NCBI GenBank assembly: GCA_023898525.1
Contig: CP060227.1
Span: 645,836 to 709,835 of the forward strand
From: Candidatus Nomurabacteria bacterium
Lineage (GTDB): Bacteria > Patescibacteriota > Minisyncoccia > Phycocordibacterales > UBA918
DNA: 64,000 nt
Direction of reading: 5' to 3'
Shown here one piece after another: positions 14,086-30,676 of this stretch (positions within the stretch are counted from its first letter, which is position 1; every line of letters starts with the position of its first letter). Both the position numbers and the translations under genes were made by a program. The notes beneath the pieces were generated by a model. The model saw nothing but the letters and a program-made list of their open reading frames with translations. It ran no database searches and had not been told where the DNA came from.

Positions 14086-14123
14086 AAAAAACTGGGCGCC
14101 CCGTAGGGGCGCCCAGTTTTTTC
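14086..14123 (+). terminator. intrinsic terminator after hup (GTAG loop; near-identical to the tig terminator)
   Basis: aaaaactgggcgcccc-GTAG-gggcgcccag-tttttt. Confidence 0.75.
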
Positions 14124-15115: not shown

Positions 15116-15123
15116 AGATAATA

Positions 15124-15348
15124 TTATATTAAACCACCAAATGAAACCATATAAGTATTTATAAAAGCTGGGATAACAAAAGCCAGTCCTATCATCGGCA
15201 GTACCACAACCGCTATAGTGGTCCACATAGTTATTAAAAAATACTTCCTTGTCTTTTCTACCGACTCATAAATAGCTTCTATTTTCTCTCCTTGTTGATC
15301 TAGTTGTTCTTTGATGGATCGTTCCATAATTAAAATATATTGTAACAT
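15124..15348 (-). CDS. small membrane protein
   Basis: 74 aa with two hydrophobic helices after a charged N-terminus. Confidence 0.35.
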   Translation of the reverse strand: MLQYILIMERSIKEQLDQQGEKIEAIYESVEKTRKYFLITMWTTIAVVVLPMIGLAFVIPAFINTYMVSFGGLI

Positions 15349-15420
15349 TGTGTGTCATTTTTAAGCAAAAATTATAGGCGCAATTTTTAATTGCGCCTAT
15401 ATAAAACATATACAATTCTT

Positions 15421-15948
15421 CTATGAAACTTTTTTAAGTATAAAGAAATGTCCAGAACTATAACACGATGTTTCTTGATTAGTGCGGGGCTTGATATCAT
15501 AAATACTTAAGCCAGAACCATGTAATGATTCTACATGAATTGTATATCTGCAATTCTCTTTTGTTATGATTTCAAAATTAAGCACAGCTAACATATTACC
15601 AAACTGGTCTTCAGTGTCAGCCAAATATAAGAGAAAAGCTAAGGCTTCCCCGGGTGACAAAAAGGCTAAATCTTCCTCTGCTCCCTCCTGGAAAATGTCT
15701 ACGTCGTTTTTAGAACTCACTTGATTTGAATTTACAGTAACAAGTAATGGCTTAAATTTCCTACATACAGCATCCTCTTCGATAAGACCAAAAAAAGTTT
15801 CCAATATTTGTAACGGAGGGTATGATCCAAACCTTGGTTGCACCAAGTTATCAAAGACGTCAATCCCAGATATGTTTAGTATTTTTTTTAAATCATCAAC
15901 TGAGTCCGGTATAGATATCAGCTCAAGAGTTTTAGTCATTATTTCCAC
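15421..15948 (-). CDS. hypothetical protein
   Basis: 175-aa ORF, no motif. Confidence 0.45.
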   Translation of the reverse strand: MEIMTKTLELISIPDSVDDLKKILNISGIDVFDNLVQPRFGSYPPLQILETFFGLIEEDAVCRKFKPLLVTVNSNQVSSKNDVDIFQEGAEEDLAFLSPGEALAFLLYLADTEDQFGNMLAVLNFEIITKENCRYTIHVESLHGSGLSIYDIKPRTNQETSCYSSGHFFILKKVS

Positions 15949-16047
15949 CTCTCAAAAGTTATTTGTCGAATTTACACTAAATCTAGCAACTCTTATATCA
16001 CAAAATACAAGCACTCGCTACAGCCATGTAGCGAGTGTGATATGAGG

Positions 16048-16731
16048 TTAAGCAATATTCCAGATAACCGCTCCTCTTCTAGCCTTTTCTTTTACAAACC
16101 GCCAGATCTTGGCATCATAAAAAGGAGCGGAGGGATACGGAGGGTATTCTCTAGCCACTTCCTCGGATTTTTCAATGACCGTGTACTCTACATCATGTAG
16201 CAAAAAACCCAAACTGACTCCACATACTTTAGTCTTTGGCCAAGCTTCTTTTAAACAGCCAAAAGTAGTCCCAGAACCAACCGCTACCCACACTTCTTCG
16301 GGAGAAGTAATTGTTTCTTTCGCCAATTTTATCAATTCAGTCCGAAATAACTCACAATTAAATCCGATTGGTAAGTGGAAGGCTTCATTCTCTCTAGCCC
16401 AATTTTTCACCAAGTTGCCCACTTCATGTTGTTTTCTGACTTTATTAGCAAAATGAAAGAAAACATTCGGAAAATCTTTTAGATACTCAGTTACGTATGT
16501 ATATCTTGGGTTACCAGCTAAAAATATATGCGCTTCTTTTCCCATCTTCATCGCAGCTATAGCTAAAGCCAGACCAGAGTGACCATACTCATGGACCGCA
16601 CAAGCTATTTTAATTTCTGAAATATGGCGCAAGGCCTCTTCCAGTGCCAAATGTTTAATTCCACCGGGAACCAAATCACCCCGTACCACCCTAAAACCAT
16701 CTATTTTATGAACCGATAATTTATTCATCAT
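16048..16731 (-). CDS. PLP-dependent fold-type II enzyme-like protein (ACC deaminase / D-cysteine desulfhydrase-like, short)
   Basis: VVRGDLVPGGIKHLALEEAL fits the GGNK(PLP-Lys)xRKLE motif; later glycine-rich VWVAVGSGTTFGCL loop; only 227 aa, so a truncated or minimal form. Confidence 0.45.
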   Translation of the reverse strand: MMNKLSVHKIDGFRVVRGDLVPGGIKHLALEEALRHISEIKIACAVHEYGHSGLALAIAAMKMGKEAHIFLAGNPRYTYVTEYLKDFPNVFFHFANKVRKQHEVGNLVKNWARENEAFHLPIGFNCELFRTELIKLAKETITSPEEVWVAVGSGTTFGCLKEAWPKTKVCGVSLGFLLHDVEYTVIEKSEEVAREYPPYPSAPFYDAKIWRFVKEKARRGAVIWNIA

Positions 16732-17146
16732 CTTCTCCTACTAAAGTTAACCTACTTTTACTTCCTTCTGCTCTAAAGTCGTTGCCAATAGCTATAATTA
16801 CTAACTCTGATAAAGCATCAATGGCATGTGGTACATTACTGGGAATCAAGTATATAAGACCGGCTTTCAAGTCAATCTTGGTATCAAGATAAGTCAAAAT
16901 ACCAAGACCGTATGTCACCACCAAAATATGCGATCCAACATGAGTATGAAGACCGACTTTTTCACCAGCGGCAAAGCGTATCAAGCTAGCACCAAAGGGT
17001 TTATCGCCGCTTTGGTCAAAAATTAACGACAATGCTGTTGCATCACTCTTTACCATTTGAATTGGTTGCTCGCCTTTCATCGGTGTTAGTACCCTATCCT
17101 TCATCTCTGCCCAAGTAGCTGATTGAAAATTATTAAATGCGTTCAT
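16721..17146 (-). CDS. cupin domain protein
   Basis: GEKVGLHTHVGSHILVVTYGLGILTYLD...LIYLIPSNVPHAID, the two cupin motifs; start moved to MNAFNN (17146) because the longer ORF would overlap the divergent TrmB gene. Confidence 0.55.
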   Translation of the reverse strand: MNAFNNFQSATWAEMKDRVLTPMKGEQPIQMVKSDATALSLIFDQSGDKPFGASLIRFAAGEKVGLHTHVGSHILVVTYGLGILTYLDTKIDLKAGLIYLIPSNVPHAIDALSELVIIAIGNDFRAEGSKSRLTLVGEDDE

Positions 17147-17249
17147 AATTCTATTCTTGACTTTAAAACAGTCCACCAATATACTTACAAATAAATAACG
17201 AGTGGCAAATACCACCACAGAGTGATAAGGGTCACCATAAATAGCAAAT

Positions 17250-18011
17250 ATGGAATACCAAGAAATACTACAGACATTAGGCTTAGCCAAAAATGAAGCC
17301 AAGATTTACGAGACTTTGATTCGTCGCGGAAATTCTTCGGTTAGTACAATATCTGAAAAATCAGGGGTACATAGACGCAACGTCTATGATTCTTTAAATC
17401 GTCTTATGGAAAAAGGATTAGTTATTGAAGTAGTAGATTCCAAAGAAAACATTTATCAAGCAGTCGAACCTAGAAAATTACAAGAAATTTTAGCCGAAAA
17501 AACCAAGCAACTTGAAGCCGCCCTCCCCTCTCTCGATAAACTTTACTTTAGTACGCCATCTGAATACCGAGTACAAACCTACCGTGGCAAGGAGGGTTGG
17601 AAACAATACATGAGAGACATACTGCTGGTAGAAAAGCCTTTCTATTCAATTGCTGCTCAAGGAGCCTGGCTTGATGAACGAGTAACCAACTTCATCCCCG
17701 GATTTCTCACCGGGTTAAAGAAAAAGAAAATAAAAATGTATCATTTATTTGATTATGAAGTAAAAGCAGCTAGCCACCCGATTATTCAGCATGTAGGTAA
17801 ACATTATAAGTTTTTACCAAAAAAGTACGCCACTACTTCCGGTATCGATATCTTTGGCGACCGAGTAAATATCATGCACCATCAATATCTCGGTCAAGTC
17901 GGTGAAGTTGATGAGATCATGTTTACTGTTATTCAAAATCAAAACCTAGCCGACTCTTTCAGAACCTGGTTTCAGTACATGTGGGACTTTTGTCCTGAGA
18001 TTAAAGACTGA
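17250..18011 (+). CDS. TrmB-family transcriptional regulator
   Basis: N-terminal winged HTH LGLAKNEAKIYETLIRRGNSSVSTISEKSGVHRRNVYDSLNRLMEKGLV plus C-terminal TrmB-like domain. Confidence 0.75.
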   Translation: MEYQEILQTLGLAKNEAKIYETLIRRGNSSVSTISEKSGVHRRNVYDSLNRLMEKGLVIEVVDSKENIYQAVEPRKLQEILAEKTKQLEAALPSLDKLYFSTPSEYRVQTYRGKEGWKQYMRDILLVEKPFYSIAAQGAWLDERVTNFIPGFLTGLKKKKIKMYHLFDYEVKAASHPIIQHVGKHYKFLPKKYATTSGIDIFGDRVNIMHHQYLGQVGEVDEIMFTVIQNQNLADSFRTWFQYMWDFCPEIKD

Positions 18012-18027
18012 TTAATATAAATAACAA

Positions 18028-18462
18028 TTACCATCCAAACTCTGAATAAGTAATATTATTCCTATAATTTTCAATACCGGCTTTCATGAAGTCAATTGTG
18101 TTGTCTGGTAAATTATCTAAATCAAACCAATCAAGACCATCACATTTATGTGGCTCACAGTTTTTTATCTCGCCCTTGTATGATTTTGTGGTCATAAAAA
18201 AATCTACACGTACATCTTTCTTATTATCCCTATACATCACATGAACCACTTCCAGATCTTCTGGTTTTATATCAATTCCAATTTCTTCTTTTGTTTCCCT
18301 GGCACAGCCTTCCTTGGCTGTTTCGGCGTTCTCTATGTGTCCAGCGGGAACTCCATAAAACCCATCCATAAAACCGGTTTTGAAACGACGCCCTAATAGA
18401 ATCTTATTGTCTTTAATTAACAGTAAGTATACTGAACCGACGCAAGTAAAATCTTTTTTCAT
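18028..18462 (-). CDS. NUDIX hydrolase
   Basis: Nudix box GVPAGHIENAETAKEGCARETKEEIGI (GX5EX7REUXEEXGU). Confidence 0.8.
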   Translation of the reverse strand: MKKDFTCVGSVYLLLIKDNKILLGRRFKTGFMDGFYGVPAGHIENAETAKEGCARETKEEIGIDIKPEDLEVVHVMYRDNKKDVRVDFFMTTKSYKGEIKNCEPHKCDGLDWFDLDNLPDNTIDFMKAGIENYRNNITYSEFGW

Positions 18463-18547
18463 TTCTACAAGTGTAGCAAATGCAAAACTTGAAGCAAGTT
18501 GCGCACAATACGGGTGTACTTTGGTTAACTTTTAAAGGTACATTATT

Positions 18548-19041
18548 ATGAAAACAGACATTAACAAAGAACCATCATTCAGAGGAACTGGAGAAGACAT
18601 TCCCCACGAAGGTGCGGAAATAATTGAAAGAAATGCCATCAACGCTGTCGTTTGTAACCCAAAAACAGGTAGATATATGCTATTAAAATGGAAAGATCTA
18701 CCTTGGATAGCTTTTGTTTCAGGTGGAATTGAAAAAGGACAGACTGCCGAAGAAGCGGTCAGAACTGAAGTCAAGCAGGAAACCGGTTACATAAACCTTA
18801 AACTCATAAGCGTATTACCTCGCTACAATGCCTTGTTTTGGCACGGAGGAAAAAAGGTGAATTGATTAGCTAGATTTCAAATTTCTTATTTGAACTAATA
18901 GATTACGAAAAGGTTGAGGTTGATTCAGACGAACTGGCTCGTCATGAGGAGATTTGGCTAACTTTGGATGAACTTAAGAAAACAGATTTACAAGAAGGTC
19001 CACGATTCCTTTTGGATCATATAATTCAACAAGGATTGTAG
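18548..19041 (+). pseudogene. NUDIX hydrolase, apparently frameshifted (two reading-frame segments)
   Basis: 18548-18865 encodes the Nudix box AEEAVRTEVKQETGY then stops right after a GGAAAAAAGG homopolymer; the C-terminal-like segment (DYEKVEVDSDELARHEEIWLTLDELKK...) continues in a different frame from 18874 to 19041. Confidence 0.45.
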
Positions 19042-19119
19042 CCCGCCTATCTGACACGATAAAACCCGCACGGTAGTAGATTGTGCGGGTTTTTGCTGGA
19101 TTAGCTTTAGTTCATTGAG

Positions 19120-19623
19120 TCAAGCTCTAATAAAGATGTGATGTGTCGAATCACCAAAAGTATAAACTTGGATAATCTGATATGTTTTAAACGCAATTAT
19201 TTTGCGATAAATCAGACACTTATACTTATCTGGTAATCCAAGCGGCTTTTCTTCTACAGTAAAATTATGGTGCCAGGTTATGATGTTCTTGTAGAATTTA
19301 TCTAATAAAAGAACACTGGTTGGTAAAAAGACTATAAGCAAGGTTTTGGTCAGTGATAAATCACTGAAAAAATACAATGTTAAGGTACCCACGACCAATA
19401 TTTCACACAGCCACCAAAATAACCTAAACCATCTAAAGTTTCTGAGCTCTATTATGAGCCTCAGCCACCCTGGTGCCACCCTGTAAGTAAAATATTCATA
19501 GCAAGTATCTGCAGGATGTAACCTTAAACTTTCCAAGTACACCCATTCTTGATCCAATTGCTCAGCTAATATAGCAGCTTCCGTTCTGGCCTCTTCTGTG
19601 TCTACATGTTCTGGTATACCCAT
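19120..19623 (-). CDS. hypothetical membrane protein
   Basis: 167 aa with 2-3 TM helices and W/F-rich segments. Confidence 0.5.
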   Translation of the reverse strand: MGIPEHVDTEEARTEAAILAEQLDQEWVYLESLRLHPADTCYEYFTYRVAPGWLRLIIELRNFRWFRLFWWLCEILVVGTLTLYFFSDLSLTKTLLIVFLPTSVLLLDKFYKNIITWHHNFTVEEKPLGLPDKYKCLIYRKIIAFKTYQIIQVYTFGDSTHHIFIRA

Positions 19624-19772
19624 TTTTCACTTCTCCTATTAGAAGTTAAAGAAAAAACAAATTACTACGTCTACTGACTGAGATTATACTATTTTGAGGG
19701 TTTGTAAAGATACAATGGCCAATAATAAAAAGAGTGTGAATCACGTTTGAAACACACTCTTTTGGTTTATTA

Positions 19773-20060
19773 TTAGTGATGATGGTGAAGGCCTCCGGAA
19801 ATTAAGCCAAAGGTAATACCACTAAGAATAGCTGACCAAATACCAAAAAATGGATCATAGACAGTGCCATACCCTGGGTAGGGGTCAGCAAATATTATCG
19901 GATCATTATAATATCCCCAGTAACCAGGCTGTGGCGGTATGTTGTATCCGTAGTCATAATAACCACCCATTCCTCCATAATAAGGATGAGGTGTAATAAC
20001 ACAGGCTGATGAAAATGACGCCATTATTAACACCGTAACAACAATTATTAATTTTTTCAT
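19773..20060 (-). CDS. small secreted Tyr/Gly/Pro-rich protein with C-terminal HHHH
   Basis: Signal peptide MKKLIIVVTVLIMASFSSA, YGGMGGYYDYGYN...PGYWGYYNDP low-complexity core, hydrophobic segment and terminal His4. Confidence 0.5.
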   Translation of the reverse strand: MKKLIIVVTVLIMASFSSACVITPHPYYGGMGGYYDYGYNIPPQPGYWGYYNDPIIFADPYPGYGTVYDPFFGIWSAILSGITFGLISGGLHHHH

Positions 20061-20155
20061 GATGAAACCTCCCGTAAAAAGAAACGTTTAGAACAATTTT
20101 ATCTTTATTTAATAGTTTAGTTTGGAAGAATTGTCAACTCATGTCTTTGAAATGA

Positions 20156-20590
20156 TTAGTAAGTGTTACTTTTTTTATGGTGATTAGTTTTAAACATTTC
20201 CGCCAACTTTAAAACACTGGGAAATACATCAAGCTTCCTACAATCTTCCAAGTCAACAAAACGAAGTTCTGTACACTCGTCAGATGGAGTGAAGTTTAAA
20301 TCTTCTAATGTAGTTTCGTATAAAACATTAGCAAACCTAACACCATCACTCTCTCGCCTATCTGTAAGAAAGTAACTGGGTGTATCCGCTACAAAAGTAA
20401 CCTTAAGTCCTGTCTCTTCTTTAATCTCACGTTTTAGATCTTCTTGTGCTGACATACCCCAATCTAATCCTCCGCCAAGTAGTTCCCAGTTACCGTTTTC
20501 TTCTTTGGCAACAAGAAATTTGTTCTTGGTCTCATTTAGAACCAACGCCTTTACACTAACACGATAAAAACACTCGGGTATTGAACTCAT
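20156..20590 (-). CDS. NUDIX hydrolase
   Basis: Nudix box GGGLDWGMSAQEDLKREIKEETGLKV. Confidence 0.8.
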   Translation of the reverse strand: MSSIPECFYRVSVKALVLNETKNKFLVAKEENGNWELLGGGLDWGMSAQEDLKREIKEETGLKVTFVADTPSYFLTDRRESDGVRFANVLYETTLEDLNFTPSDECTELRFVDLEDCRKLDVFPSVLKLAEMFKTNHHKKSNTY

Positions 20591-20689
20591 ATGAAAATAT
20601 TTAGGTTTTTAAGAGGTGCCAAGACGCGTTGTCTCCGGCTCTGTGTGAAGATAGTTTACTTGATTTGATAGAAGATAGCAAAATTGTTT

Positions 20690-21246
20690 ATTCAAAGAAT
20701 ATACCCCACCTTTCAAGGTGGGGCTATTTCGATACAATAGTAGGTAATGTCACCAATTATAAAAAAGTCACACAGTGCTAGTGAACTAGTCTACCACTTT
20801 GTTTTCCCTGTGAAATACAGAAGAAAGATATTTACCGAAGAAAACGAACCAACCCTGAAGGAGTTAGCTTTGGAATTAGAAAAACGTTACGAACTCCACT
20901 TTTTAGAGATAGGTATAGATAAAGATCATGTTCACTTTCTTATCCAAGCAATTCCAAGCTATGCTCCTTCGTATATTGCCAATACTGTTAAAGGAAACAT
21001 TACTAAACGTTTTTTCTTGGCTCATCCAGAGGTAAAGATCTTTCTCTGGGGTGGTAACCTTTGGACTGATGGCTATTACGTTAATACTGTCGGTAACGCT
21101 AATATGTCTATTGTTAAAAACTACGTACAGAATCAAGGTTTACCTGAATACAAACAATTACACCACCAAACTCTCTCGTTGTTTTAACTTAAAACTCTCT
21201 TCATGTGCCACTGATACCCCGTGTCTTCAGGCCGGGGTAGTTCATT
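20690..21246 (+). mobile_element. IS200/IS605-family insertion sequence, copy A (557 bp, identical to 27229-27785)
   Basis: 557-bp exact repeat with subterminal hairpins (ccccacctttcaaggtgggg at the left end; accccgtgtcttcaggccggggt at the right end) enclosing a Y1 transposase. Confidence 0.8.
20747..21187 (+). CDS. tnpA: IS200/IS605 family transposase TnpA (HUH Y1 transposase)
   Basis: 146 aa; HUH motif DHVHFLIQ and catalytic Tyr region TDGYYVNTVGN; 100% identical to 27286-27726. Confidence 0.85.
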   Translation: MSPIIKKSHSASELVYHFVFPVKYRRKIFTEENEPTLKELALELEKRYELHFLEIGIDKDHVHFLIQAIPSYAPSYIANTVKGNITKRFFLAHPEVKIFLWGGNLWTDGYYVNTVGNANMSIVKNYVQNQGLPEYKQLHHQTLSLF

Positions 21247-21299
21247 GACCCTATAAACCCCCAGCACAGCTGGGGTGTACATTTAAAGACAACGTCGTA

Positions 21300-21860
21300 T
21301 TACGATTAAGTCCTCCCTGACAAGGGAGGACTTAATCGCTTAATACATAATACGTATGTCATATCACAAACGTACCATTAGAACATTATCACACTGTTTC
21401 TACGATCTGATATATCACATCGTCTGGACACCTAAATACCGAGGTAAGGTACTGGATAAACCAAAAGTAAAACAAGAAGTCAGTCGCACCATAGGTCAAA
21501 TATGCAAATGGAAACAGTGGGAAATAATAGAGTTAAACATCCAAGATGATCATATCCATCTTATACTTTTAACTTCACCACGTTACTCCATATCGTATGT
21601 GATGCAAATAATCAAAGGAAAATCATCAGCTTGGATGAAGAAGAAAATCAAAAACACCGATAAACTCTATGATCGAGGTTCACTCTGGGCCAGAGGTTAT
21701 TTTGTATCAAGTATTGGTCTAGATGAACACCTGATACGTCGCTACGTACGTCATCAGTACGATAAGAATCAACTAGAACAACCATCGTTGTTTAATCTCT
21801 TTAAGTGATGCTGGCATCGCCAGCTATTATGAAGCCACTGGACCTTAGTCCGGTGGTTTG
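21300..21860 (+). mobile_element. second, divergent IS200/IS605-family element
   Basis: Left hairpin ttaagtcctccc-tgacaa-gggaggacttaa (21310-21339), right-end hairpins (gctggcatcgccagc, ccactggaccttagtccggtgg) flanking a distinct TnpA; boundaries approximate. Confidence 0.6.
21356..21808 (+). CDS. tnpA: IS200/IS605 family transposase TnpA (second, divergent paralog)
   Basis: YDLIYHIVWTPKYR..., HUH motif DDHIHLIL, Tyr region WARGYFVSSIG. Confidence 0.8.
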   Translation: MSYHKRTIRTLSHCFYDLIYHIVWTPKYRGKVLDKPKVKQEVSRTIGQICKWKQWEIIELNIQDDHIHLILLTSPRYSISYVMQIIKGKSSAWMKKKIKNTDKLYDRGSLWARGYFVSSIGLDEHLIRRYVRHQYDKNQLEQPSLFNLFK

Positions 21861-22132
21861 TCACTTCCTGATGTAAATTTGTATAATTTTCTGTCGTCTG
21901 ACCAGGTTTCTAATGTGCACTGAATATCACTAAAAACAATTATATACTCCCCTATCAAGGGGTACATATTTTTCATATATTTATAGTTTGGATATACTTC
22001 TGGTTCTTTTTTATTAGTCATAAAAGGTTGGGTATATTTATCATATATAAAATAATTCCAACTTAAACATGAGGCCACAATTTTACAGATTATTCTATAG
22101 AAATATCTTCTGGTTTCCAAAAACATCTGCAA
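21845..22132 (-). CDS. hypothetical protein
   Basis: 95-aa ORF overlapping the 3' end of the next gene by about 40 nt; weak. Confidence 0.25.
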   Translation of the reverse strand: MQMFLETRRYFYRIICKIVASCLSWNYFIYDKYTQPFMTNKKEPEVYPNYKYMKNMYPLIGEYIIVFSDIQCTLETWSDDRKLYKFTSGSDKPPD

Positions 22133-22560
22133 TGTTTACTTTTACAATCTCTAATATGAGCATTATTCATGACAAATGAAATTTCTTTAGGAGTAGAAAA
22201 AGGATATGCTTTTTGACTCATTTCCTTACATATGTCACAAACGTACTCATCCTCTGCAGTAAATAATCGAACGCTTTTTACAACTCCTGATTGTGACATA
22301 TGCCTTATGTTGTTTCTAGCTTCATGTAGAGAACCCTCATAATCTTGACCATTATTTTTTAATGCCCATTCATGCATAATAAAAGGTAAATCTGATTTCT
22401 TAACCCATTTCTTTTCTCCAGAAACTAAAGTTCTTGCATAGATATCCTCACCACATTTTGGACATTTTTTCTTTCTTGTTGGATTACTTACGTCCGTATT
22501 GCAATAAGGACAATTTGTATATGTTTTTAAAACGGTTTCCTTTTTGAATAAGCCAAACAT
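22090..22560 (-). CDS. hypothetical zinc-ribbon protein
   Basis: Start reassigned to MFGLFKK (22560) because the longer ORF reads through the repeat element; CPYC..CPKC N-terminal zinc ribbon and C-terminal CDIC...CKSKHCRC cysteine cluster. Confidence 0.5.
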   Translation of the reverse strand: MFGLFKKETVLKTYTNCPYCNTDVSNPTRKKKCPKCGEDIYARTLVSGEKKWVKKSDLPFIMHEWALKNNGQDYEGSLHEARNNIRHMSQSGVVKSVRLFTAEDEYVCDICKEMSQKAYPFSTPKEISFVMNNAHIRDCKSKHCRCFWKPEDISIE

Positions 22561-22580
22561 TATATATTGATTATAACAAA

Positions 22581-22735
22581 GCGGGTGAGAAGAATCGGTC
22601 ACCTTCGCATCAATATTTTGTTCGACCAAGGGTCTCCAAAATATTGTGCTACGCGACCCCGTCGCTTCATACCGAAGCAAAAAGTGTTTTGCTTCAGGCT
22701 TCGCATGAAGCTCTTTTCGATTCTTCTCACCCGCA
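22581..22735. repeat. tRNA-Gly(TCC) 3'-end-associated structured element, copy 1
   Basis: Termini are a direct 17-nt copy (gcgggtgagaagaatcg, identical to 30607-30623 inside tRNA-Gly-TCC) and an inverted copy (cgattcttctcacccgca) of the tRNA 3' end; ~120-bp core shared with 43461-43608, with compensatory changes in three stems. Confidence 0.7.
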
Positions 22736-22786
22736 CAAATGGCCGGCCGAAACGCGAAAGCGTTTCGGCCGGCCATTTGTGCGGGC
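22730..22786. other. perfect GC-rich inverted repeat (26-bp arms)
   Basis: cccgcacaaatggccggccgaaacgc-gaaag-gcgtttcggccggccatttgtgcggg, starting inside the inverted tRNA-end fragment; lies just 3' of the minus-strand CYTH gene. Confidence 0.6.
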
Positions 22787-22849
22787 TATTCAACGATGTT
22801 CGAACTTTTTTAATGAAAATGACCACCCCAAATTGAGGTGGCCAAGGAA

Positions 22850-23455
22850 TTATTGGAATGGATTTTCCATTCCAAAAGTAATTAAAGGTGTTCCGTTATT
22901 GATTACATCTTTTGAAACACCGTATTTATCTTCATAGAGCTGGTCTACCGCGCAAAACTTTGCATCAGACCACTGAAACCCCAGTTTTTCAGACACTGTT
23001 CTCACAACATCCTCTGAAACACCCTCAACCTCCACGAATGAATCGAGAAATGGCCATGTGTCTATTGTCACTTCGACACCATCAAGCAACCAAAGCTCCC
23101 TCAAGGTTTCTTGATAAGCCTTTCGTACACACCCAAGCGACTCGAGCAAGAGTTCAGCGTTTTCGAATGAGTCCACTTGTACACAGACCTCTTTTTGGTC
23201 ATGTATAGCATCACCTCCTACTGATTTAACACTGACTGTGATTTTATCTGACTCGTCTCGTACACGAGCCCATCCATTTACCACCTGCGAGGTTGCTGGA
23301 AGATTGAAAACACTTCTCTTCTGCAAGAATTCACTCTTTTGAAGTTTCGCTCCAGCAGATGAAAGTTTTTCTCTGATTATCTCTTTATCCACCTTAACAA
23401 AGGTAGCTTCGTATTCGATTTGCATATTTTCTCCAACTGGTTTCAAATTCTCCAC
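22850..23455 (-). CDS. CYTH-domain protein (triphosphate tunnel metalloenzyme / class IV adenylyl cyclase-like)
   Basis: N-terminal MQIEYEATFVKV (ExE-type strand) and C-terminal acidic strand VTIDTWPFLDSFVEVEGVSED typical of CYTH; paralogous to the next gene. Confidence 0.6.
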   Translation of the reverse strand: MENLKPVGENMQIEYEATFVKVDKEIIREKLSSAGAKLQKSEFLQKRSVFNLPATSQVVNGWARVRDESDKITVSVKSVGGDAIHDQKEVCVQVDSFENAELLLESLGCVRKAYQETLRELWLLDGVEVTIDTWPFLDSFVEVEGVSEDVVRTVSEKLGFQWSDAKFCAVDQLYEDKYGVSKDVINNGTPLITFGMENPFQ

Positions 23456-23497
23456 AAAATTTATATCACAAATATTGTGTTTGTAAATATCTAGAAA

Positions 23498-24049
23498 TTA
23501 TTCGCACTTATCGAATGTAAAGTAACGGAAGTTCGACACATCGTAACCATAATTCTCAATAATTTTCTTTGGGTCTATAAAAAGCGCCTTGTTCCAATCT
23601 AATCCTAACTTTTCAGCAATATCTTTGACGTGTTGCTCTGTATCTCCCTCAATTTCAAGCATTGGTGGTATTTTTGGCCAAGAATCAATATCTAATACCA
23701 CGCCATCAAACTTAATCTTTCTCCTCTTTTTCTGCTGAACTCTGAAAGGTATAAGTTCCATTTTTTCTAAAAAGGCTTTGAGCTGCTCTGGCTTATCTAC
23801 TGTAAATTCTATTTCTTCTGCACCATCAATTGTATCTGCTGTGATTTGCTTGTGGGTAAAAATGTGTTTTCCATCATAGCTTCTAATACGTGCGTATCTT
23901 CCAGTAGGACTCCAAGTCAAATCCTTATCATAAAAAATTGTCTCCTCGAGCAAATGTTCACCCAAATCAACACCGCCAAGTGAAACAGCTTTTGCAACAA
24001 TCTCCTCGATGTCTATCTCAATAAATCTTGCTTCTATTTCAGTTACCAT
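23498..24049 (-). CDS. CYTH-domain protein (triphosphate tunnel metalloenzyme / class IV adenylyl cyclase-like)
   Basis: MVTEIEARFIEIDIEEI (ExExK/R motif), RYARIRSYDGKHIFTHK, VVLDIDSWPKIPPMLEIEGDTEQ, the CYTH signature strands. Confidence 0.75.
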   Translation of the reverse strand: MVTEIEARFIEIDIEEIVAKAVSLGGVDLGEHLLEETIFYDKDLTWSPTGRYARIRSYDGKHIFTHKQITADTIDGAEEIEFTVDKPEQLKAFLEKMELIPFRVQQKKRRKIKFDGVVLDIDSWPKIPPMLEIEGDTEQHVKDIAEKLGLDWNKALFIDPKKIIENYGYDVSNFRYFTFDKCE

Positions 24050-24057
24050 ATATCTCT

Positions 24058-25098
24058 TTAATTATCTCTTCTAATAACCATCATTTGTTTTGTGTCTCTA
24101 ATACCAGCATTTGTCATACTGTCCATAAATTGACTGTACTCTTTGCGTTCAACAGATTCTGAAGACTCAATCACCAAAGATTTTTGTTCGTCTGAAAGCG
24201 AAACCACCATTTCTATCATTTCTCCAAGACTACGATAAGTATAAATTTCAGACCCCTCCCTTCTTTGCCAAGCGTCAAAAATAAAAGATTCCTGACCTAG
24301 TTCTTGAATAGCAGACTCAAGTCTTGACTGCTCGTACGCACCAGACTCGATTTCACCTAAAATATGTTTGAGTGATTCTCCATATTTTTGAAGTAACGCA
24401 TAATCTAGAAAAGAAACGACGTGTCTCTGCATTTCTCGATGGTAGTGGACTGAAGCAACAGCCTCTGCTCCCTCTCCAATATTCCACATTTCATCAGATA
24501 CCTGATTTACCTTAAGAAATTTCTCTCTAAAGCCACTATCAAAATTTTTTAAGAAGTCTATTAGCGCCGGATTATACTCACCAGATAACAACTCTTGTGA
24601 ATTATCAGGCAGTCCAACATCACGATAAAAAATACGACCACCTTCAGTTAAGTGTGCCGTAAGCTTATCAAAAACTTCTCTCAAGTAGTCACTAACACTT
24701 ACAGTTCCTTCAAGAAAATCTTTATTGTATGAGATAACTTCGTGAATAACCGCAGAAACATTTATCGCAGAAAATGACCTTTCCGCAAACGGAAGCGCTG
24801 TTAAATTGGCAGCTACTCCAAACACTTTATCTTCTGGCTTATGAACACGTCTAACTAATGGTTCTAGAATATCAATTGCATACACTTCTAAATCAGGGTC
24901 TTTTATATCACGTTTTATTTTTTCAACCCCTTGACCACCACCAACACCAACCTCCATAACCCGAACCGTTCCGTCAATCCTGGGTAGCGACTCAGAATCT
25001 AATGCTTTAATGAGCATTCCAACCTTTTCATCAATACCGCCTTTAAGCTGTTCAAGATATTCCGTGTCACCTTTTTCGTTTTTTGAGAAAGTTTCCAT
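24058..25098 (-). CDS. class I SAM-dependent methyltransferase with large uncharacterised C-terminal domain
   Basis: Rossmann motif I VMEVGVGGGQGVEKI, acidic motif II (VYAIDI); start set to METFSK (25098), which follows a terminator hairpin; about 200 aa of unassigned C-terminal sequence. Confidence 0.7.
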   Translation of the reverse strand: METFSKNEKGDTEYLEQLKGGIDEKVGMLIKALDSESLPRIDGTVRVMEVGVGGGQGVEKIKRDIKDPDLEVYAIDILEPLVRRVHKPEDKVFGVAANLTALPFAERSFSAINVSAVIHEVISYNKDFLEGTVSVSDYLREVFDKLTAHLTEGGRIFYRDVGLPDNSQELLSGEYNPALIDFLKNFDSGFREKFLKVNQVSDEMWNIGEGAEAVASVHYHREMQRHVVSFLDYALLQKYGESLKHILGEIESGAYEQSRLESAIQELGQESFIFDAWQRREGSEIYTYRSLGEMIEMVVSLSDEQKSLVIESSESVERKEYSQFMDSMTNAGIRDTKQMMVIRRDN

Positions 25099-25127
25099 AA
25101 AAAAGCAGAGGGTACTAGCCCCTCTGC
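25099..25127 (-). terminator. intrinsic terminator between tmk-like gene and methyltransferase (minus strand)
   Basis: gcagagggtactagcccctctgc hairpin followed by a T-run on the minus strand. Confidence 0.55.
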
Positions 25128-25148
25128 CCAATCATACTATGCTCATCA

Positions 25149-25694
25149 CTAGAATGCCATTTTAACGACCATTTCTGTACATTGCTCAACTGAAAAACTC
25201 TTAGTGTCGAGCGAAACAAATGGCTGCTTTTCAAGAACCAAATTCCTGAACAAAGCTTGTGTTAAATCAAACTGTTTATCCAGAACTCTTTTGTCACCAG
25301 CATCCATACCTCGAGCAACTATCCGCTGGATTTGTGTGTCGGCGTCAGCCACCAAAAGTACAGTCAGGTCTGGTTTAAGAATGGTTGCAAAATCATCGTC
25401 AGTGACCGTTGCACCCATTACCTGATGATAAGTGAGTGTGCTAATCCAGTAGCGGTCACATATCACGTGTTTACCAGAACGCACTAACTCGGAAACCTCT
25501 TCTGAAGCATCCTGAATTGCATTCCGATAGAAAGCATAGTGTTCATCAGCACTAGCATCTCTATGCAACTTTTCGCTGTATTTTTGATACTTCTTCGGCG
25601 GCGTAGCATATGCAACCCCGCCAACCTTATCAGCGATACGTGTAACTAGCGTGCTTTTTCCTGTGCCATCAGCACCTTCAAGTACAAGGAACAT
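25149..25694 (-). CDS. tmk: thymidylate kinase-like P-loop kinase
   Basis: MFLVLEGADGTGKSTLV P-loop, DRYWISTLTYHQ (Tmk DRY/NMP-binding-like), lid-like RIVARGMDAGDKR; 181 aa, shorter than typical Tmk. Confidence 0.7.
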   Translation of the reverse strand: MFLVLEGADGTGKSTLVTRIADKVGGVAYATPPKKYQKYSEKLHRDASADEHYAFYRNAIQDASEEVSELVRSGKHVICDRYWISTLTYHQVMGATVTDDDFATILKPDLTVLLVADADTQIQRIVARGMDAGDKRVLDKQFDLTQALFRNLVLEKQPFVSLDTKSFSVEQCTEMVVKMAF

Positions 25695-25748
25695 TTTTCA
25701 CCTCCAGATTTAAGGAAAATTTGCTAGCGTAAAAATAGTACAATAATT

Positions 25749-26300
25749 TTAATATGTCAATGTTTGTTTCTCAATCTCAGAAAGGACAGTTGAGACGGAG
25801 ATTTTAAAATTGTCACCAACCTGAACCCTATATAAAGGTAGTTCAGCATCTTCAAACACATCATCTACAAGTTGGTCGCGTTCCATACGGCTAGGCTTGT
25901 TGTGTGAACTTCCATCCAGCTCAATTGCAATTAGTGGTGTCATCTTGTCGTTACAAATCAAAAAATCAACGTGTTTAGGTAGTATCTGGTTACGCCTCTG
26001 ATAGTAACCATTTCCGTTCACTACATCCACTATGTCAGCTATACGCATTTTAGGAAAAATAAATAAATTGTCTGGTAGGCCAGATAGTAAAGATTGAAAT
26101 AGAGCCATTTCACTATCGTTCATGACCACTGCTTTCTTTTTGTATTCACGTTGCTTTTCAATAACCACTTCTTTAACCACCTTTTGTTTAAAGGGCGAAA
26201 TTAACTTAAAGAATAGCCACTTAATGAACAAAGCACAAAGCAGCAAGAAAATGACCAGAAAGACCAGATTGAAAAGTAGTTGTAGTAAGTTAGTTTCCAT
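25749..26300 (-). CDS. membrane-anchored DUF2726-domain protein (restriction-endonuclease-like fold)
   Basis: N-terminal TM, then ALFQSLLSGLPDNLFIFPKMRIADIV...VDFLICNDKMTPLIAIELDGSSHNKPSRMERDQLVDDVFEDAELPLYR, matching the DUF2726 pattern (VDFvlcD...PllaIElDdssH...R). Confidence 0.6.
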   Translation of the reverse strand: METNLLQLLFNLVFLVIFLLLCALFIKWLFFKLISPFKQKVVKEVVIEKQREYKKKAVVMNDSEMALFQSLLSGLPDNLFIFPKMRIADIVDVVNGNGYYQRRNQILPKHVDFLICNDKMTPLIAIELDGSSHNKPSRMERDQLVDDVFEDAELPLYRVQVGDNFKISVSTVLSEIEKQTLTY

Positions 26301-26355
26301 ACCTGCTAACTATAGTATGTAGAACCAGAGGTAGCAATTACATACGCTGTGTGTA

Positions 26356-26562
26356 ATGAAACCACGGTTACTAGTTAAGTTTGGAAATACAATCCGTAAA
26401 CTACGAGAGGAGCGTGGTTTGTCCCAAGAACGGTTAGGTGAGATAGCCAAAGTTCACCGCACCTATGTAGGAATGATAGAGCGTGCAGAAAAGAACATCA
26501 CTTTCACAAACATTGAAAAATTTGCAAAAGCCCTTAAAGTAGACATCAAAGACTTATTTTAA
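26356..26562 (+). CDS. XRE-family helix-turn-helix transcriptional regulator
   Basis: 68 aa; NTIRKLREERGLSQERLGEIAKVHRTYVGMIERAEKN, canonical HTH_XRE; divergent from the DUF2726 gene. Confidence 0.8.
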   Translation: MKPRLLVKFGNTIRKLREERGLSQERLGEIAKVHRTYVGMIERAEKNITFTNIEKFAKALKVDIKDLF

Positions 26563-26564
26563 GG

Positions 26565-27320
26565 ATGGAAACTGCAAATATACTAGACAGAAAACTTGCT
26601 GCTATAGAAACCAGTCAGACTGACACTGACTGTTTTAAGCATATCCACGGCTACATAAAATACATACTCGAAACACCAGAGCTGAAAGCAATTCTTGATA
26701 CTGAAGAAAAAGATTTCTACAGAAAAGTTAAGTTCACAGATGACAATATCAAACTAGAACAAGCTAATTATTATCAAGCGTATTTTGTTGCATCGTACGT
26801 CCGTATTTATCTCCCAATCGAACACTACTGGAACAGCAACGAACAAGATGAAAAACAAGACCCTGTTGCACTGCTTTTAATTTGGGGGCCAAAACACCCA
26901 CGAACTATGAAATGGGTGAACGGTCATGATTTCTTTTCTAAAAGAGAACAGCTCAAACAACTTAAAAGCTATTGGCAGTGGTTTGATGGTCAGCGTGATT
27001 TTTACATCAGTGAAATCAAAAACCTACACCTTGCCTTGATTACAGAATTATCTAAACAGAAAGCATTGCCAACTGTGGCCGATGAAAAGCCAGATGTTTT
27101 TCAGATGAACTTAGAAACAGGCGACTTTAATCTTGGTGGTGTTACTGGAACGTTGAACATAACAACCCAAGAATTTAGAGTGATGGCAAAATTATATACA
27201 GCACCCAATCATCGTATGCCATATCTTGATTCAAAGAATATACCCCACCTTTCAAGGTGGGGCTATTTCGATACAATAGTAGGTAATGTCACCAATTATA
27301 AAAAAGTCACACAGTGCTAG
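26565..27320 (+). CDS. hypothetical protein; C-terminal ~25 aa encoded by the IS200 left end
   Basis: 251-aa ORF immediately after the XRE gene; its last residues (...NIPHLSRWGYFDTIVGNVTNYKKVTQC) come from IS200 copy B, suggesting IS insertion into the gene's 3' end. Confidence 0.5.
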   Translation: METANILDRKLAAIETSQTDTDCFKHIHGYIKYILETPELKAILDTEEKDFYRKVKFTDDNIKLEQANYYQAYFVASYVRIYLPIEHYWNSNEQDEKQDPVALLLIWGPKHPRTMKWVNGHDFFSKREQLKQLKSYWQWFDGQRDFYISEIKNLHLALITELSKQKALPTVADEKPDVFQMNLETGDFNLGGVTGTLNITTQEFRVMAKLYTAPNHRMPYLDSKNIPHLSRWGYFDTIVGNVTNYKKVTQC

Positions 27321-27785
27321 TGAACTAGTCTACCACTTTGTTTTCCCTGTGAAATACAGAAGAAAGATATTTACCGAAGAAAACGAACCAACCCTGAAGG
27401 AGTTAGCTTTGGAATTAGAAAAACGTTACGAACTCCACTTTTTAGAGATAGGTATAGATAAAGATCATGTTCACTTTCTTATCCAAGCAATTCCAAGCTA
27501 TGCTCCTTCGTATATTGCCAATACTGTTAAAGGAAACATTACTAAACGTTTTTTCTTGGCTCATCCAGAGGTAAAGATCTTTCTCTGGGGTGGTAACCTT
27601 TGGACTGATGGCTATTACGTTAATACTGTCGGTAACGCTAATATGTCTATTGTTAAAAACTACGTACAGAATCAAGGTTTACCTGAATACAAACAATTAC
27701 ACCACCAAACTCTCTCGTTGTTTTAACTTAAAACTCTCTTCATGTGCCACTGATACCCCGTGTCTTCAGGCCGGGGTAGTTCATT
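27229..27785 (+). mobile_element. IS200/IS605-family insertion sequence, copy B (identical to 20690-21246)
   Basis: 557-bp exact duplicate including both terminal hairpins. Confidence 0.8.
27286..27726 (+). CDS. tnpA: IS200/IS605 family transposase TnpA
   Basis: Identical to 20747-21187. Confidence 0.85.
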   Translation: MSPIIKKSHSASELVYHFVFPVKYRRKIFTEENEPTLKELALELEKRYELHFLEIGIDKDHVHFLIQAIPSYAPSYIANTVKGNITKRFFLAHPEVKIFLWGGNLWTDGYYVNTVGNANMSIVKNYVQNQGLPEYKQLHHQTLSLF

Positions 27786-28149
27786 GGTTAGATGCCTGAA
27801 AACAAATGCCACAGAGGCTTCAAAAACAGATAAAAGAATGCTTGGTACAGTGATTCGTAACATTAAAAGACAGCTTGGTATTCTTCCAGAAGATAAACGA
27901 GTGAACGAGGACATCTTCCATAATGAAATGAAGTTTGGCTATCGGCTTGAAATAAAAGGTTAATTTCTTTTCCATAACATTTCCATATCTTTTCCGTACC
28001 CTTTCGAGGGTCTTTTTTATATCGTGCTGGCATGAGTTTCAGCCAAGGATTAGTAGAACAGTACCAGCGATACATGGAACGTCGTTGTGGGGTTTGTATT
28101 ACTCACGAACAGGCGCAGCTACACCTTGCTTCCTTAGCACGACTCTATA

Positions 28150-28262
28150 CAGCAATTTCTTTTTCGCAAGACTCTGGCGGTGGTCGCGTGCGGCTTTCGC
28201 CTCACCCTCACCCCGAGGCGGGGTGAGGCGAAAGGCCGCGTCGCGGCCTTTCTGCGCAGCAG
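28150..28262. promoter_or_regulatory. GC-rich nested inverted repeats upstream of Rep: candidate rolling-circle origin
   Basis: cctcaccctcaccccgaggcggggtgagg and ggccgcgtcgcggcc hairpins in an otherwise AT-rich locus, 40-150 nt upstream of the HUH Rep start. Confidence 0.35.
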
Positions 28263-28303
28263 AAAGTGACTTGATTTTATATACACATAGTTCGACATCA
28301 TTT

Positions 28304-29146
28304 ATGAGTAGACCACGCACCAGTCATTACAAAATTGTTATTTCAGGACACATTGTTGAGGCAATGCAGTATGCCAAAGCAGTTGGCTACAGTCTTGAGT
28401 CAAGTAAAAAGCAGGCACCGTATCGCAAACGACGAGCTTTAGCTGAGCAAGAGATAACGGCTAGTTCACTCAGTCGGACAAAGAACAGGCTAATTCGATT
28501 GGTGAACGCTAATTGTTTTATGTGGACTGATATAGACGGACAGATAATTAAACCGCAGTTTCTGACCTACACTATCCACGAAAATATTAAGACAGTTGAA
28601 CAAGCTAACCCGCTTTTCACCAACTACATCAAACGACTGAATTACCATACCTACGGCACTAAAGCATCGGTAATTAAATACGTGGTTGTGCCTGAGTTTC
28701 AAAAACGTGGGGCAGTTCACTATCATGCAGTGTTCTTTAACCTGCCTATGATTAACTCGAGGAGAGAATATAAAACGGGTGAGTTTGCAAAAGTTTGGGA
28801 ACATGGATATATCAAAAAACGAAACATAAGCAAAGTACCAAATGTTGGTTTGTATATGACTAAGTATATGACCAAAGATGCCATGGATAGACGACTAGTT
28901 GGCAGAAAGAAATATTTTTCTAGTCGAGGCTTGTTAAAACCAGAGGTAATTACCTATGAACATTTAGCGGGGGATATGATGGACTACTTGTCAGAACTAA
29001 AACCAATGCACGCTTATATCACGTCACCTAATGATGAACGTCCGTTTGTTGAGAACCCTACTTTTTGCGCGACATACAATCTATCCACTGAACAGTTGCA
29101 TGATTTACGAAATTTCTATACCCTCGATAGTGCTAACTTAAGGTAG
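28304..29146 (+). CDS. HUH-superfamily rolling-circle replication initiator (Rep)
   Basis: HUH motif GAVHYHAVFFN and Tyr motif GLYMTKYMTKD (YxxKY). Start set to MSRPRT (28304); the upstream extension of the ORF spans the GC palindromes. Confidence 0.7.
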   Translation: MSRPRTSHYKIVISGHIVEAMQYAKAVGYSLESSKKQAPYRKRRALAEQEITASSLSRTKNRLIRLVNANCFMWTDIDGQIIKPQFLTYTIHENIKTVEQANPLFTNYIKRLNYHTYGTKASVIKYVVVPEFQKRGAVHYHAVFFNLPMINSRREYKTGEFAKVWEHGYIKKRNISKVPNVGLYMTKYMTKDAMDRRLVGRKKYFSSRGLLKPEVITYEHLAGDMMDYLSELKPMHAYITSPNDERPFVENPTFCATYNLSTEQLHDLRNFYTLDSANLR

Positions 29147-29149
29147 CGT

Positions 29150-30614
29150 ATGAAATACATCCTTTATTGTCGAAAATCACAAGAGTCAGAGGATAGACAA
29201 GTGCAGTCACTTGAGGCGCAAGAGCGTGAACTGAATGACTTTGCTAAACGTCATAGTTTGGACATTGTTGGTGTGTATCATGAGAGTCGGTCTGCTAAGA
29301 CGGTCGGTCGTCCAGTATTCAATGAGGTGATTAAGAAAATACAATCAGGCAAGGCTGATGGTTTGCTTTGTTGGAAACTAGACCGCTTAGCGCGTAATTT
29401 CATAGATGGTGGGCTTGTCATTGACCTATTGCAGCACTCAGTCATTAAAAGTATTCAAACCCCTGCTAAAGAATATCTACCAACTGACCCTGTATATCTG
29501 ATGGTGTTTGAGCTTGGCGTGGCTAATCAATTTTCTCGCGACCTGTCTGAAAACGTAAAGCGTGGCAATCGTGAGAAAATTCGCAATGGTGGCTGGCCTG
29601 GATTAGCACCTTTTGGTTATCTAAACGATAAGGCAGAGAAAACGCTTTATGTTGACCCCGACCGTGGGCCATACGTACAGCAGATGTATGAACTCTACGC
29701 CACTGGTTTGTATAGTCTTAAAGAGCTGTCCAATGAGCTTTATGAGCGAGGATTACGCACCAAGCAAGGCAACAAAGTCCATTGCGGTACCATCAGACAT
29801 ATTTTGCGTAACCCAATGTATCACGGCGTGATTCGCTACCGTGGCAGCTATTACCCAGCTAACTTTACTAGCATTACCACCAAAGACCTTGTACGACAAA
29901 AGCATGAACGTCATGGACGGTAGTGCAAAACCGCGGAAGCAAAAGCACCTCTTTCCCTTAACTGGATTGTTTACCTGTGGTGTCTGCGGATATGCCGTGA
30001 CCGCAGAGAAACAAAAAGGTTACACGTACTACCACTGCACTAACGGCAAGGGAATTTGTGACCAAAAGAAACTATTCATTCGTGAGGAAAAACTTGATGA
30101 GCAACTGGCACCAATCTTTGATGATGTTGCATTTGACGAGGAACTAATTGAAATGATGTATCAGGCGGCACTTGAGCAAATGGAACATGACGACCAGTTC
30201 AACACCGCAGCTATTGAGAAACTAGAAAAGGAATTGGCCGCAATCAAACTAAAAGATAATCGCTTACTTGATGCTTTCTTAGCTGAAAATATTGAAAAGG
30301 ATATTTACGATGCAAAACAGGCAGAAATAAAGCATGAACGGATTGCACTAGAGAAACAATTAGCTGGAATGCGCCAAAATCACCAAAACCCCTACGCAAC
30401 TATCGAACGGGCAAAAGAGTTGTTTTTGTTTAGTAATAGAGCCAAATCTGAGTATGCGAATGCCGTTCCTGAGCGAAAACAAGAAATCGCTTATGAGTTA
30501 CTATCGAACGCTTTACTGAAAGACCGAAAAATGGCTCAACCACAACTTAAAAGCCCTTACGATATGCTCGCAAGGACTCCTAAGAATGCTGATTTTGCAA
30601 TTATGTGCGGGTGA
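29150..30614 (+). pseudogene. large serine recombinase with apparent frameshift near 29860-29900; 3' end overlaps tRNA-Gly
   Basis: 29150-29923 encodes the resolvase catalytic domain (YCRKSQESEDRQVQSLEAQ...LDRLARN) and recombinase domain; the zinc-ribbon/coiled-coil part (HLFPLTGLFTCGVCGY..., LFDKV-like TLYDKSMNVMDGSAKPRK) is in a different frame (29841-30614). The TGA stop at 30612-30614 lies inside the tRNA-Gly 3' end. Confidence 0.6.
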
Positions 30615-30676
30615 GAAGAATCGAACTCCCGACTACTGCTTGGAAGGCAGTCGTTTTACCACTAAACTACACCCGC
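30606..30676 (-). tRNA. tRNA-Gly (anticodon TCC)
   Basis: Reverse complement GCGGGTG-TA-GTTT-AGTGGTA-AAAC-G-ACTGC-CTTCCAA-GCAGT-AGTC-GGGAG-TTCGATT-CTTCT-CACCCGC-A folds as a 71-nt cloverleaf with U33 and anticodon UCC; no encoded CCA. Confidence 0.8.

Follow-up and report, generated by a model that had tools for sequence, protein, structure and literature searches.

A family of protein-less structured insertions at the 3′ ends of Patescibacteria tRNA genes

The 64-kb stretch of Candidatus Nomurabacteria DNA analysed here (the window) contains two copies of a structured sequence, each of which begins and ends with sequence from the 3′ end of a tRNA-Gly gene. This raises the question of whether the two ends are held in agreement by selection on base pairing, as argued in an earlier note on this DNA, or are copies of the tRNA made when DNA was inserted beside it. 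The two copies lie where that note had placed them, fold strongly and carry the sequence details that it reported. Copy 1 spans 22581-22737 and copy 2 43462-43608, and the host genes, tRNA-Gly(TCC) (30605-30676) and tRNA-Gly(GCC) (43657-43730), are intact and encoded on the minus strand, as is tRNA-Arg(TCG) (51867-51939), which is likewise intact; all three were called by ARAGORN and Rfam. At the Rfam gathering threshold the window yielded four tRNAs, with scores of 60-73 bits, and nothing else. The two copies are not the only ones, contrary to what had been assumed: related units occur at 43252-43418 and 51610-51880, such that the window holds at least five units spread over three tRNAs, and three of its four tRNA genes are loaded. 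With respect to the tRNA genes themselves, tRNA-Gly(GCC) has an encoded CCA (ggccgcACCA; 43657-43660) and tRNA-Gly(TCC) does not, and a CCA-adding enzyme gene (52029-53504) adjoins tRNA-Arg. An exact duplicate of the 5′ half of tRNA-Pro(TGG) (41407-41478, plus strand), extending to the anticodon, lies 140 nt upstream (41266-41302), and a 39-nt, 82% inverted repeat (41304-41342/41472-41510) flanks this gene on both sides. This arrangement could be a leader-trailer stem or reflect another type of insertion, directed at the anticodon loop.

The left arm of copy 1 (LA, 22581-22597) is a direct repeat of tRNA-Gly(TCC) from C56 to C72, in tRNA-gene orientation, and the right arm (RA, 22716-22737) is the inverted 3′ end of the same tRNA from T54 to the discriminator plus two bases, matching at 22 of 22 positions. 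If X denotes the last ~20 nt of the host tRNA, which start exactly at T-loop position C56, then LA is a direct repeat of X and RA an inverted X, as both tRNA-Gly genes are on the minus strand. The arm sequences gcgggtgagaagaatcg and cgattcttctcacccgc are 17 nt each and 100% complementary, giving a perfect 17-bp inverted repeat. The earlier description of direct and inverted tRNA-end arms holds in full for copy 1 and for the RA of copy 2 (43590-43619), where similarity to the inverted tRNA-Gly(GCC) end reaches into the trailer. It does not extend to the whole LA of copy 2 (43462-43472), which consists of the 11 nt of the T-loop and T-stem part (agggagaatcg), the acceptor part being decayed and unpaired. 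Across the family described below, LA and the tRNA end form a direct repeat of 11-22 nt in every complete copy. RA and the tRNA end, with the hairpin between them, make up a single palindrome. In copy 1 this terminator-like hairpin has perfect arms of 26 nt (22730-22785), which lengthen to 40 nt when the island lying between copy 1 and its tRNA is taken out, because the sequence tgtgcggg is present at both 22778-22785 and 30604-30611. The corresponding hairpin that separates copy 2 from tRNA-Gly(GCC) is at 43622-43649.

In each family member LA and RA agree with the local tRNA, even to the single-base variants that distinguish the tRNA-Gly(TCC) of the window from that of L001 (labels L001-L023 denote loci in other genomes or metagenome contigs that were compared with the window). 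The terminal stem tracks the isoacceptor because both arms were duplicated from the adjacent tRNA 3′ end, by copying of DNA. The arms decay independently, LA being perfect and RA decayed in L002, L005 and L006, with the opposite found in L001. Their outer portions erode separately, leaving an inner P1 of 6-11 bp; the stem is reduced to 11 bp in copy 2 and to 6-9 bp in L005, L006 and L012, its acceptor-like outer part not being conserved, and RA is frequently interrupted by a 17-25-nt hairpin between its T-stem and acceptor parts. Selection on pairing, the reason earlier given for the agreement between terminal stem and isoacceptor, is not supported: the arms are DNA copies of the tRNA end, and in many copies their outer parts decay independently. 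The argument from the terminal stem fails; the structured core stands. The family serves as a caution that covariation with an adjacent gene can be a signature of DNA duplication and not of RNA-level selection.

The core of copy 1 comprises, on the plus strand, module A (22597-22661), made up of a GGTC/GACC base helix, a conserved internal loop (ACCTTC/TACGC) and the P2 hairpin, followed by the P3 hairpin (type A) and a pyrimidine-rich junction, CTCTTT (22664-22711). The core of copy 2 (43472-43585, plus strand) has the same parts (module A, 43472-43536; P3, 43539-43585). The two cores are about 81-90% identical, and both copies display fold z-scores of −6 to −10 against shuffled sequence, on either strand. 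The P2 and P3 sequences quoted in the earlier note, and the compensatory differences between them, proved correct, and the compensatory changes extend to a larger set, P2 and P3 covarying across 12-25 copies. A structure model consisting of P1, the base helix, P2 and P3 was scored on 12 type-B copies, in which paired cells amounted to 95%, compared with 32-46% in slid controls, and the covariation score was 0.249, compared with 0.113 in shuffles (0/500). P1, being trivially complementary, was left aside in listing the informative changes. Thus, P2 pair 29:60 changes from AU to GC in 5 of the 12 copies, pair 36:53 varies with pairing kept, and P3 pair 92:109 is CG, AU or GC. The distal stem of P2 is altered in sequence among copies and dispensable, and L014 has regained G-C at a P2 position where five copies have a T.C mismatch. 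Part of the seeming invariance of the 5′ motif comes from ascertainment, since the discovery patterns demanded exact matches; copies found by profile do vary in it. Small extra insertions of 60-75 nt lie in or beside the cores of L003 (5665-5725), L013 (in the core, P3 region) and L018 (2720-2790); a motif common to those of L003 and L013, aatgact...ataaaaatggaa.t.c.cttgtggtgcaa, hints at an even smaller nested repeat.

A core with these properties could be the gene of a structured non-coding or tRNA-like RNA. Transcribed from the tRNA strand, such an RNA would consist of an acceptor-like 5′ strand, an optional D-arm-like hairpin, an extended T stem, the core and, together with its terminator, the 3′ end of the tRNA. 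RNase P/Z could release it, and its role might be that of a mimic, decoy or sponge, directed at toxins or enzymes that recognize the acceptor/T-arm. Transcription of the opposite strand could instead give an RNA that acts as antisense or guide against tRNA 3′ ends. The strong folds on both strands, the covariation of P2 and P3 and the conservation of the asymmetric internal loop are consistent with an RNA, as are the good terminator that often follows LA on the tRNA strand and, in many copies, a ~20-nt hairpin in the D-arm position. Orphan structured RNAs with 3′ terminators provide a precedent (PMC5737381). The evidence on the strand that folds conflicts, however. A T.G pair in P3 (U.G in a plus-strand RNA), conserved in 18 of ~21 copies, points to the strand opposite the tRNA, but the other helices show the opposite bias, and the wobble evidence is contradictory among helices. 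No conserved promoter was detected, the signals being no stronger than shuffled expectation, and in the same promoter/terminator scan only P3 with its T-rich junction exceeded that expectation, as a weak terminator. The plus strand has no consistent terminator, and on the tRNA strand the element sits behind the T-run terminator of the tRNA. Furthermore, the acceptor-like outer stem is not conserved. No Rfam 15 family (DUF3800 motifs, tRNA-like RNAs and ribozymes included) matched at the gathering threshold, tRNAs aside, in agreement with the earlier view that the element belongs to no known non-coding RNA family; relaxing the E-value up to 10 gave only spurious miRNA-like hairpin artefacts on the palindrome. 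As the units are also missing from orthologous loci of relatives, decay, and have their position taken by unrelated cores (see below), an RNA gene is considered an unlikely explanation of the core. More specialized roles were rejected on simpler grounds: a tRNA primer-binding site would require a CCA complement, which is absent; there is no reverse transcriptase for a retron msr/msd; the 5′ part has neither the D nor the anticodon arm expected of a T-loop intron; and RNA-guided (omega/bridge-RNA-like) targeting, in which LA would be the guide, is opposed by the lack of an effector and by the invariance of the internal loops.

Searches beyond the window showed that the two copies belong to a large family. 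A two-part core pattern matched five Patescibacteria genomes (Parcubacteria, Saccharibacteria, Nomurabacteria and Paceibacteria), a 22-mer search matched 14 metagenome contigs, and a profile HMM (nhmmer) and a covariance model built from 12 copies returned 25-31 matches. In total more than 30 copies were found in Patescibacteria genomes and metagenomes. These searches confirmed the suspected association with tRNA 3′ ends: every match with enough flank is linked to a tRNA and convergent with its 3′ end, at a distance of 107-510 nt, the exceptions to this spacing being matches that adjoin a truncated tRNA end bordering an island. The host genes represent seven tRNA species (Val-TAC, Gly-TCC, Gly-GCC, Met-CAT, Arg-TCT, Ser-TGA and Arg-GCG). 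The boundaries of the units are uniformly compact, with no genes between the hairpin, RA and core in any copy. The arm and hairpin architecture is not confined to one core, as unrelated cores occupy it at several tRNAs. At tRNA-Gly(GCC) in the window, an older, distal unit with an unrelated hairpin-rich core (43252-43418, plus strand) has cagggagaatcg as its LA (43252-43263) and, as its RA, ttcgattctcca followed by a 22-nt hairpin and ctggccgta (43376-43418). At tRNA-Arg(TCG), the related units (51610-51880, plus strand) include a diverged module-A variant (51610-51673; covariance model E=0.004), an LA (51671-51684), a hairpin of the family termed core2 (51685-51753), the inner part of an RA (51754-51761) and a perfect palindrome with 34-nt arms that overlaps the tRNA-Arg(TCG) end (51807-51880). 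Core2 is also present in L001 (840-905), L020 and L022. Reduced variants occur at tRNA-Val and tRNA-Ser. In the metagenome contig L014 four of the five tRNAs within 14 kb have units (6380-8860 and 12821-14495), with reduced variants at tRNA-Ser(TGA) and tRNA-Arg(GCG). These data reveal a real, widespread family of protein-less structured insertions at the tRNA 3′ ends of Patescibacteria that has apparently not been described before, a literature search having found no published account of it. By generating long perfect palindromes and partial copies of tRNAs, the units confuse the annotation of tRNAs and islands; the covariance model R1 can be used to mark them.

That the units arrived by insertion is indicated by the relationship between filled and empty sites. 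At orthologous loci between tRNA-Gly(TCC) and a protease gene, L021 and L023 are empty, L020 and L022 contain a different core, and L001 and L005 are filled like the window; at tRNA-Arg(TCT) with the same upstream gene, L003 is empty, and L010, L014 and L015 are filled. The units are therefore polymorphic in presence at orthologous tRNA sites, although the flanks are too variable for base-exact comparison, none of the filled/empty pairs having nucleotide-level homology on both sides. The same comparison speaks against the proposal that the element is a processing or termination module for tRNA-Gly, as it is absent from orthologous tRNA-Gly(TCC) and tRNA-Arg(TCT) loci and is also found at Val, Met, Arg and Ser tRNAs. 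The LA is a sharp repeat of 19-22 nt, and a terminator of its own often comes after it (L002, L004, L006 and L011), an arrangement expected of a displaced original tRNA end; the LA of copy 1 is read in this way. The insert thus lies between direct repeats of the tRNA 3′ segment, and the tRNA is intact. L005 and L006 have a hairpin, trailer and decayed RA in common at different tRNA-Gly isoacceptors, showing that hairpin and trailer both travel with the element. Arrays are found in L014, with two units 92% alike at tRNA-Arg(TCT) and three at tRNA-Val, as mixed arrays in L001 and L005, and in the window at 43252-43608, where the older unit precedes copy 2. Decayed copies are evident in L004 (at 488) and L014 (at 8530 and 8738), and L011 and L016 differ more inside the element than in the sequence flanking it.

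On its 3′ side, tRNA-Gly(TCC) borders a hypervariable island locus. From the tRNA to a conserved 270-aa gene (window 15115-22580) this locus measures 15 kb, compared with 1-4 kb in relatives L020-L023, and the cargo of the relatives differs (NUDIX, AAA_21, TauE and rhodanese). The island between copy 1 and its tRNA reported in the earlier note is real. It measures 7.8 kb (22786-30603) and is flanked by the 8-bp repeat tgtgcggg (22778-22785/30604-30611), which identifies it as an insertion of its own, placed a few bases into the 3′ end of the tRNA. The island is later than copy 1 and no part of it, and before its arrival the layout of copy 1 (LA, core, RA, hairpin and tRNA) was identical to that of copy 2. 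It encodes a large serine recombinase, whose coding sequence is divided between two ORFs that overlap (29150-29923 and 29841-30614), and a rolling-circle Rep (28085-29146), together with an IS200 Y1 transposase, a DUF2726 protein, a dTMP-kinase-like gene, a methyltransferase and two CYTH genes. In a second assembly of the same genome the contig terminates within the island. The CYTH gene at the left end of the island (22850-23455) has a homologue in L001 (3-578, E = 2e-68) that is on the opposite (LA) side of the unit, which suggests that cargo genes shuffle around units. There are three IS200-like Y1 transposase genes in this region of the window (20747-21187, 21356-21808 and 27286-27726), and 300 nt reported as 100% identical (20687-20986/27226-27525) place one IS200-like copy within the island. 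A relationship of the element to IS200/IS605 was rejected, since the hairpin at the IS end (ccccaccttt caa ggtgggg) bears no relation to it and Y1 genes are absent at other loci.

As an island sits exactly between copy 1 and its tRNA, the element was earlier suggested to be an attB-type landing pad, that is, part of attB for the serine-recombinase island and its relatives. The left end of the island, ctattcaacgatgttcgaac, is similar to island ends in L003 (~4245), L018 (~2925) and L022 (~4045), all beside tRNA termini, and in the window and these three loci the related end, ACGATGTT[A/C]GAAC, directly adjoins the hairpin of a unit. However, the tgtgcggg crossover repeat lies within the last bases of the tRNA itself, and the hairpins that abut the four ACGATGTTNGAAC-ended islands are unrelated in sequence. 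The element therefore does not contain the crossover and both half-sites that define the attB of a large serine recombinase. Most units have no island, and homologues of the recombinase and Rep are absent at other loci. A landing pad is thus very improbable.

Larger islands adjoin units in the window and in L003, L010, L015, L018 and L022, with miscellaneous cargo across loci (NUDIX, HAD, NT5C and peptidase S51), and tRNA 3′ flanks are hot spots for hypervariable islands. The units might accordingly be inert scars, fused attL/attR-proximal arms that persisted after the loss of larger tRNA-integrating islands or prophages, with the hairpins representing former protein-binding palindromes or terminators. 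The decay of outer arms and of some whole copies, and the greater divergence of L011 and L016 inside the element than in the flanks, are what such relics would display. Scars, however, would not be expected to have the same compact boundaries in more than 30 copies from different phyla-level lineages and at seven tRNA species, without genes between hairpin, RA and core, nor to form tandem near-identical units or to maintain P2 and P3 by compensatory changes. In addition, viral, phage and plasmid collections yielded no larger parent that contains the core. The 5′ motif (22-mer) had 0 matches in viral contigs, the 13 matches to the 3′ 16-mer and the one to core2 are chance hits in coding DNA, the phage and plasmid collections gave no match, and an origin from phages or plasmids was rejected. 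The earlier note had set out attL/attR scars with no structural conservation as the finding that would count against it; the arms are indeed att-like repeats, but the structure of the core is conserved. It is quite doubtful that the units are scars.

The units themselves encode no protein, and no transcript of them was found. They contain no ORF, no recombinase lies in or consistently near them, and the only recombinase nearby is that of the separate island, such that an element-encoded integrase is lacking. No tyrosine recombinase was present among the scanned window ORFs (most of those ≥140 aa). All-against-all clustering of neighbouring ORFs, in search of a partner protein, gave only syntenic housekeeping genes, and no further distal att copies that would turn neighbouring genes into cassettes were found in the window. 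A DUF3800 gene (42456-43229), encoding an RNase H-like protein, starts 23 nt from the LA of the distal unit at tRNA-Gly(GCC). DUF3800 associates with orphan structured RNAs (PMC5737381, PMC10910872); a link was nevertheless rejected, as no DUF3800 homologue is near any other copy.

These observations lead us to favour, with confidence about evenly matched by doubt, the view that the units may be miniature, protein-less, trans-mobilised, site-specific integrative elements that target the T-loop region of tRNA genes. Read in the tRNA sense, a unit of about 190-260 bp has the layout tRNA 5′ part, X, terminator hairpin, inverted X, structured core, X and original flank. As the inserted DNA brings a new X, the tRNA remains intact. 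The comparisons above show that the old tRNA 3′ end, often with its original terminator, is displaced outward as LA, and that repeated insertion produces tandem arrays whose copies later decay. A recombinase encoded elsewhere, by the host or a helper element, would move the units, with crossover in the T-loop region. A small circle consisting of X, the hairpin, inverted X and the core, recombining through X, would yield exactly the observed layout. Within the circle, inverted X and X would pair as one long stem, with the hairpin loop capping one end and the core the other, and this stem would reproduce the tRNA target in double-stranded form on one folded strand, as in integron attC sites and the CTXphi attP. 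Such a model would account for the inverted X, for the conservation of structure over sequence in P2 and P3, and for the occurrence of one design among unrelated cores. Several points count against integrative elements. No recombinase accompanies the units, no excised or circular form was seen, and homology of both flanks at the nucleotide level is missing from every filled/empty pair. Classical integration does not need an inverted att copy, and a double-stranded 200-bp circle is a poor recombination substrate. The near-identical cores of L005 and L006 have different, perfectly matching X sequences, and X would need to be copied from the target, or adjusted by gene conversion. The strand-specific T.G pair conserved in P3, opposite the tRNA strand, is the only hint of recombination through a single folded strand, and it could equally indicate a transcript.

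A more specific proposal, by analogy with integrons and considered unlikely, is that these Patescibacteria micro-elements use tRNA genes as integron cassettes use attI, through a folded-strand duplex replica of the T-arm/acceptor, with a host or helper recombinase exchanging one strand with the tRNA gene. If this were so, most tRNA genes in some genomes would be loaded with such cassettes (four of five in L014 and three of four in the window), and the units would also seed variable islands at tRNA loci. Patescibacteria have few classical mobile elements. Trans-mobilised micro-elements defined by structure would be the smallest tRNA-specific integrative elements known, and would offer a handle on how the ultra-small genomes of Patescibacteria build variable islands at tRNA genes.

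Several known systems resemble the units in part. Like the orphan structured RNA motifs with 3′ terminators, such as DUF3800-I to XI, drum and skipping-rope (Weinberg et al. 2017, PMC5737381), they are compact, multi-helix and intergenic, and the array of copy 2 abuts a DUF3800 gene; in contrast, they have no Rfam match to these motifs and no DUF3800 near the other copies. With MITEs and REP/RPE-type palindromic repeats they share a short, non-coding, hairpin-forming sequence present in multiple copies, some of which are decaying. MITEs, however, have conserved terminal inverted repeats and a short target-site duplication, neither of which is found here: the terminal repeats of the units vary with the target tRNA, the flanking duplication is 19-22 nt and corresponds to the tRNA end, and the location is strictly tRNA-specific with a fixed orientation.

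The resemblance to integron attC sites and to the forked hairpin of CTXphi attP(+) is closer. In all of these, inverted repeats close a variable, branched terminal structure that is conserved more in structure than in sequence, and the imperfect inverted repeats and variable terminal structure typical of a folded single-strand site are present in the units, where P1 and the P2/P3 junction covary. The integrated topology (target, X, body, inverted X, structured spacer and X) is that of a hairpin-duplex single-strand exchange product, and, like IMEX elements, which use the host XerCD, the units encode no recombinase. They differ in that their target is the tRNA T-loop and not attI or dif, their cassette body is a terminator hairpin only, and a single-strand mechanism would be an inferred one. 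The core sites of attC, R′′/R′, are RYYYAAC/GTTRRRY; the unit junctions, GAATCG|GTCACC and CTCTTT|TCGATTC as placed by eye, correspond neither to these nor to a dif-like XerC/D consensus, and no evidence of IntI or Xer was found there.

The units are most similar to tRNA-targeting integrative elements (the T-loop sublocation class) and their integrase-less derivatives (CIMEs, tandem accretion and tycheposon-type arrays). In both these and the units, the insert is bounded by direct repeats of the 3′ segment of the tRNA, an intact tRNA is restored and its old end displaced, and serial insertions create arrays with partial tRNAs in between, at the same loci that house variable islands. The units depart from this class in measuring only about 200 bp without integrase or ORF, in holding an internal inverted att segment and a hairpin core under structural selection, and in fitting several unrelated cores into one architecture. 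By analogy, the units would be best classed with tRNA-integrating elements and their integrase-less derivatives and, with respect to their inferred mechanism, with attC and CTXphi attP.
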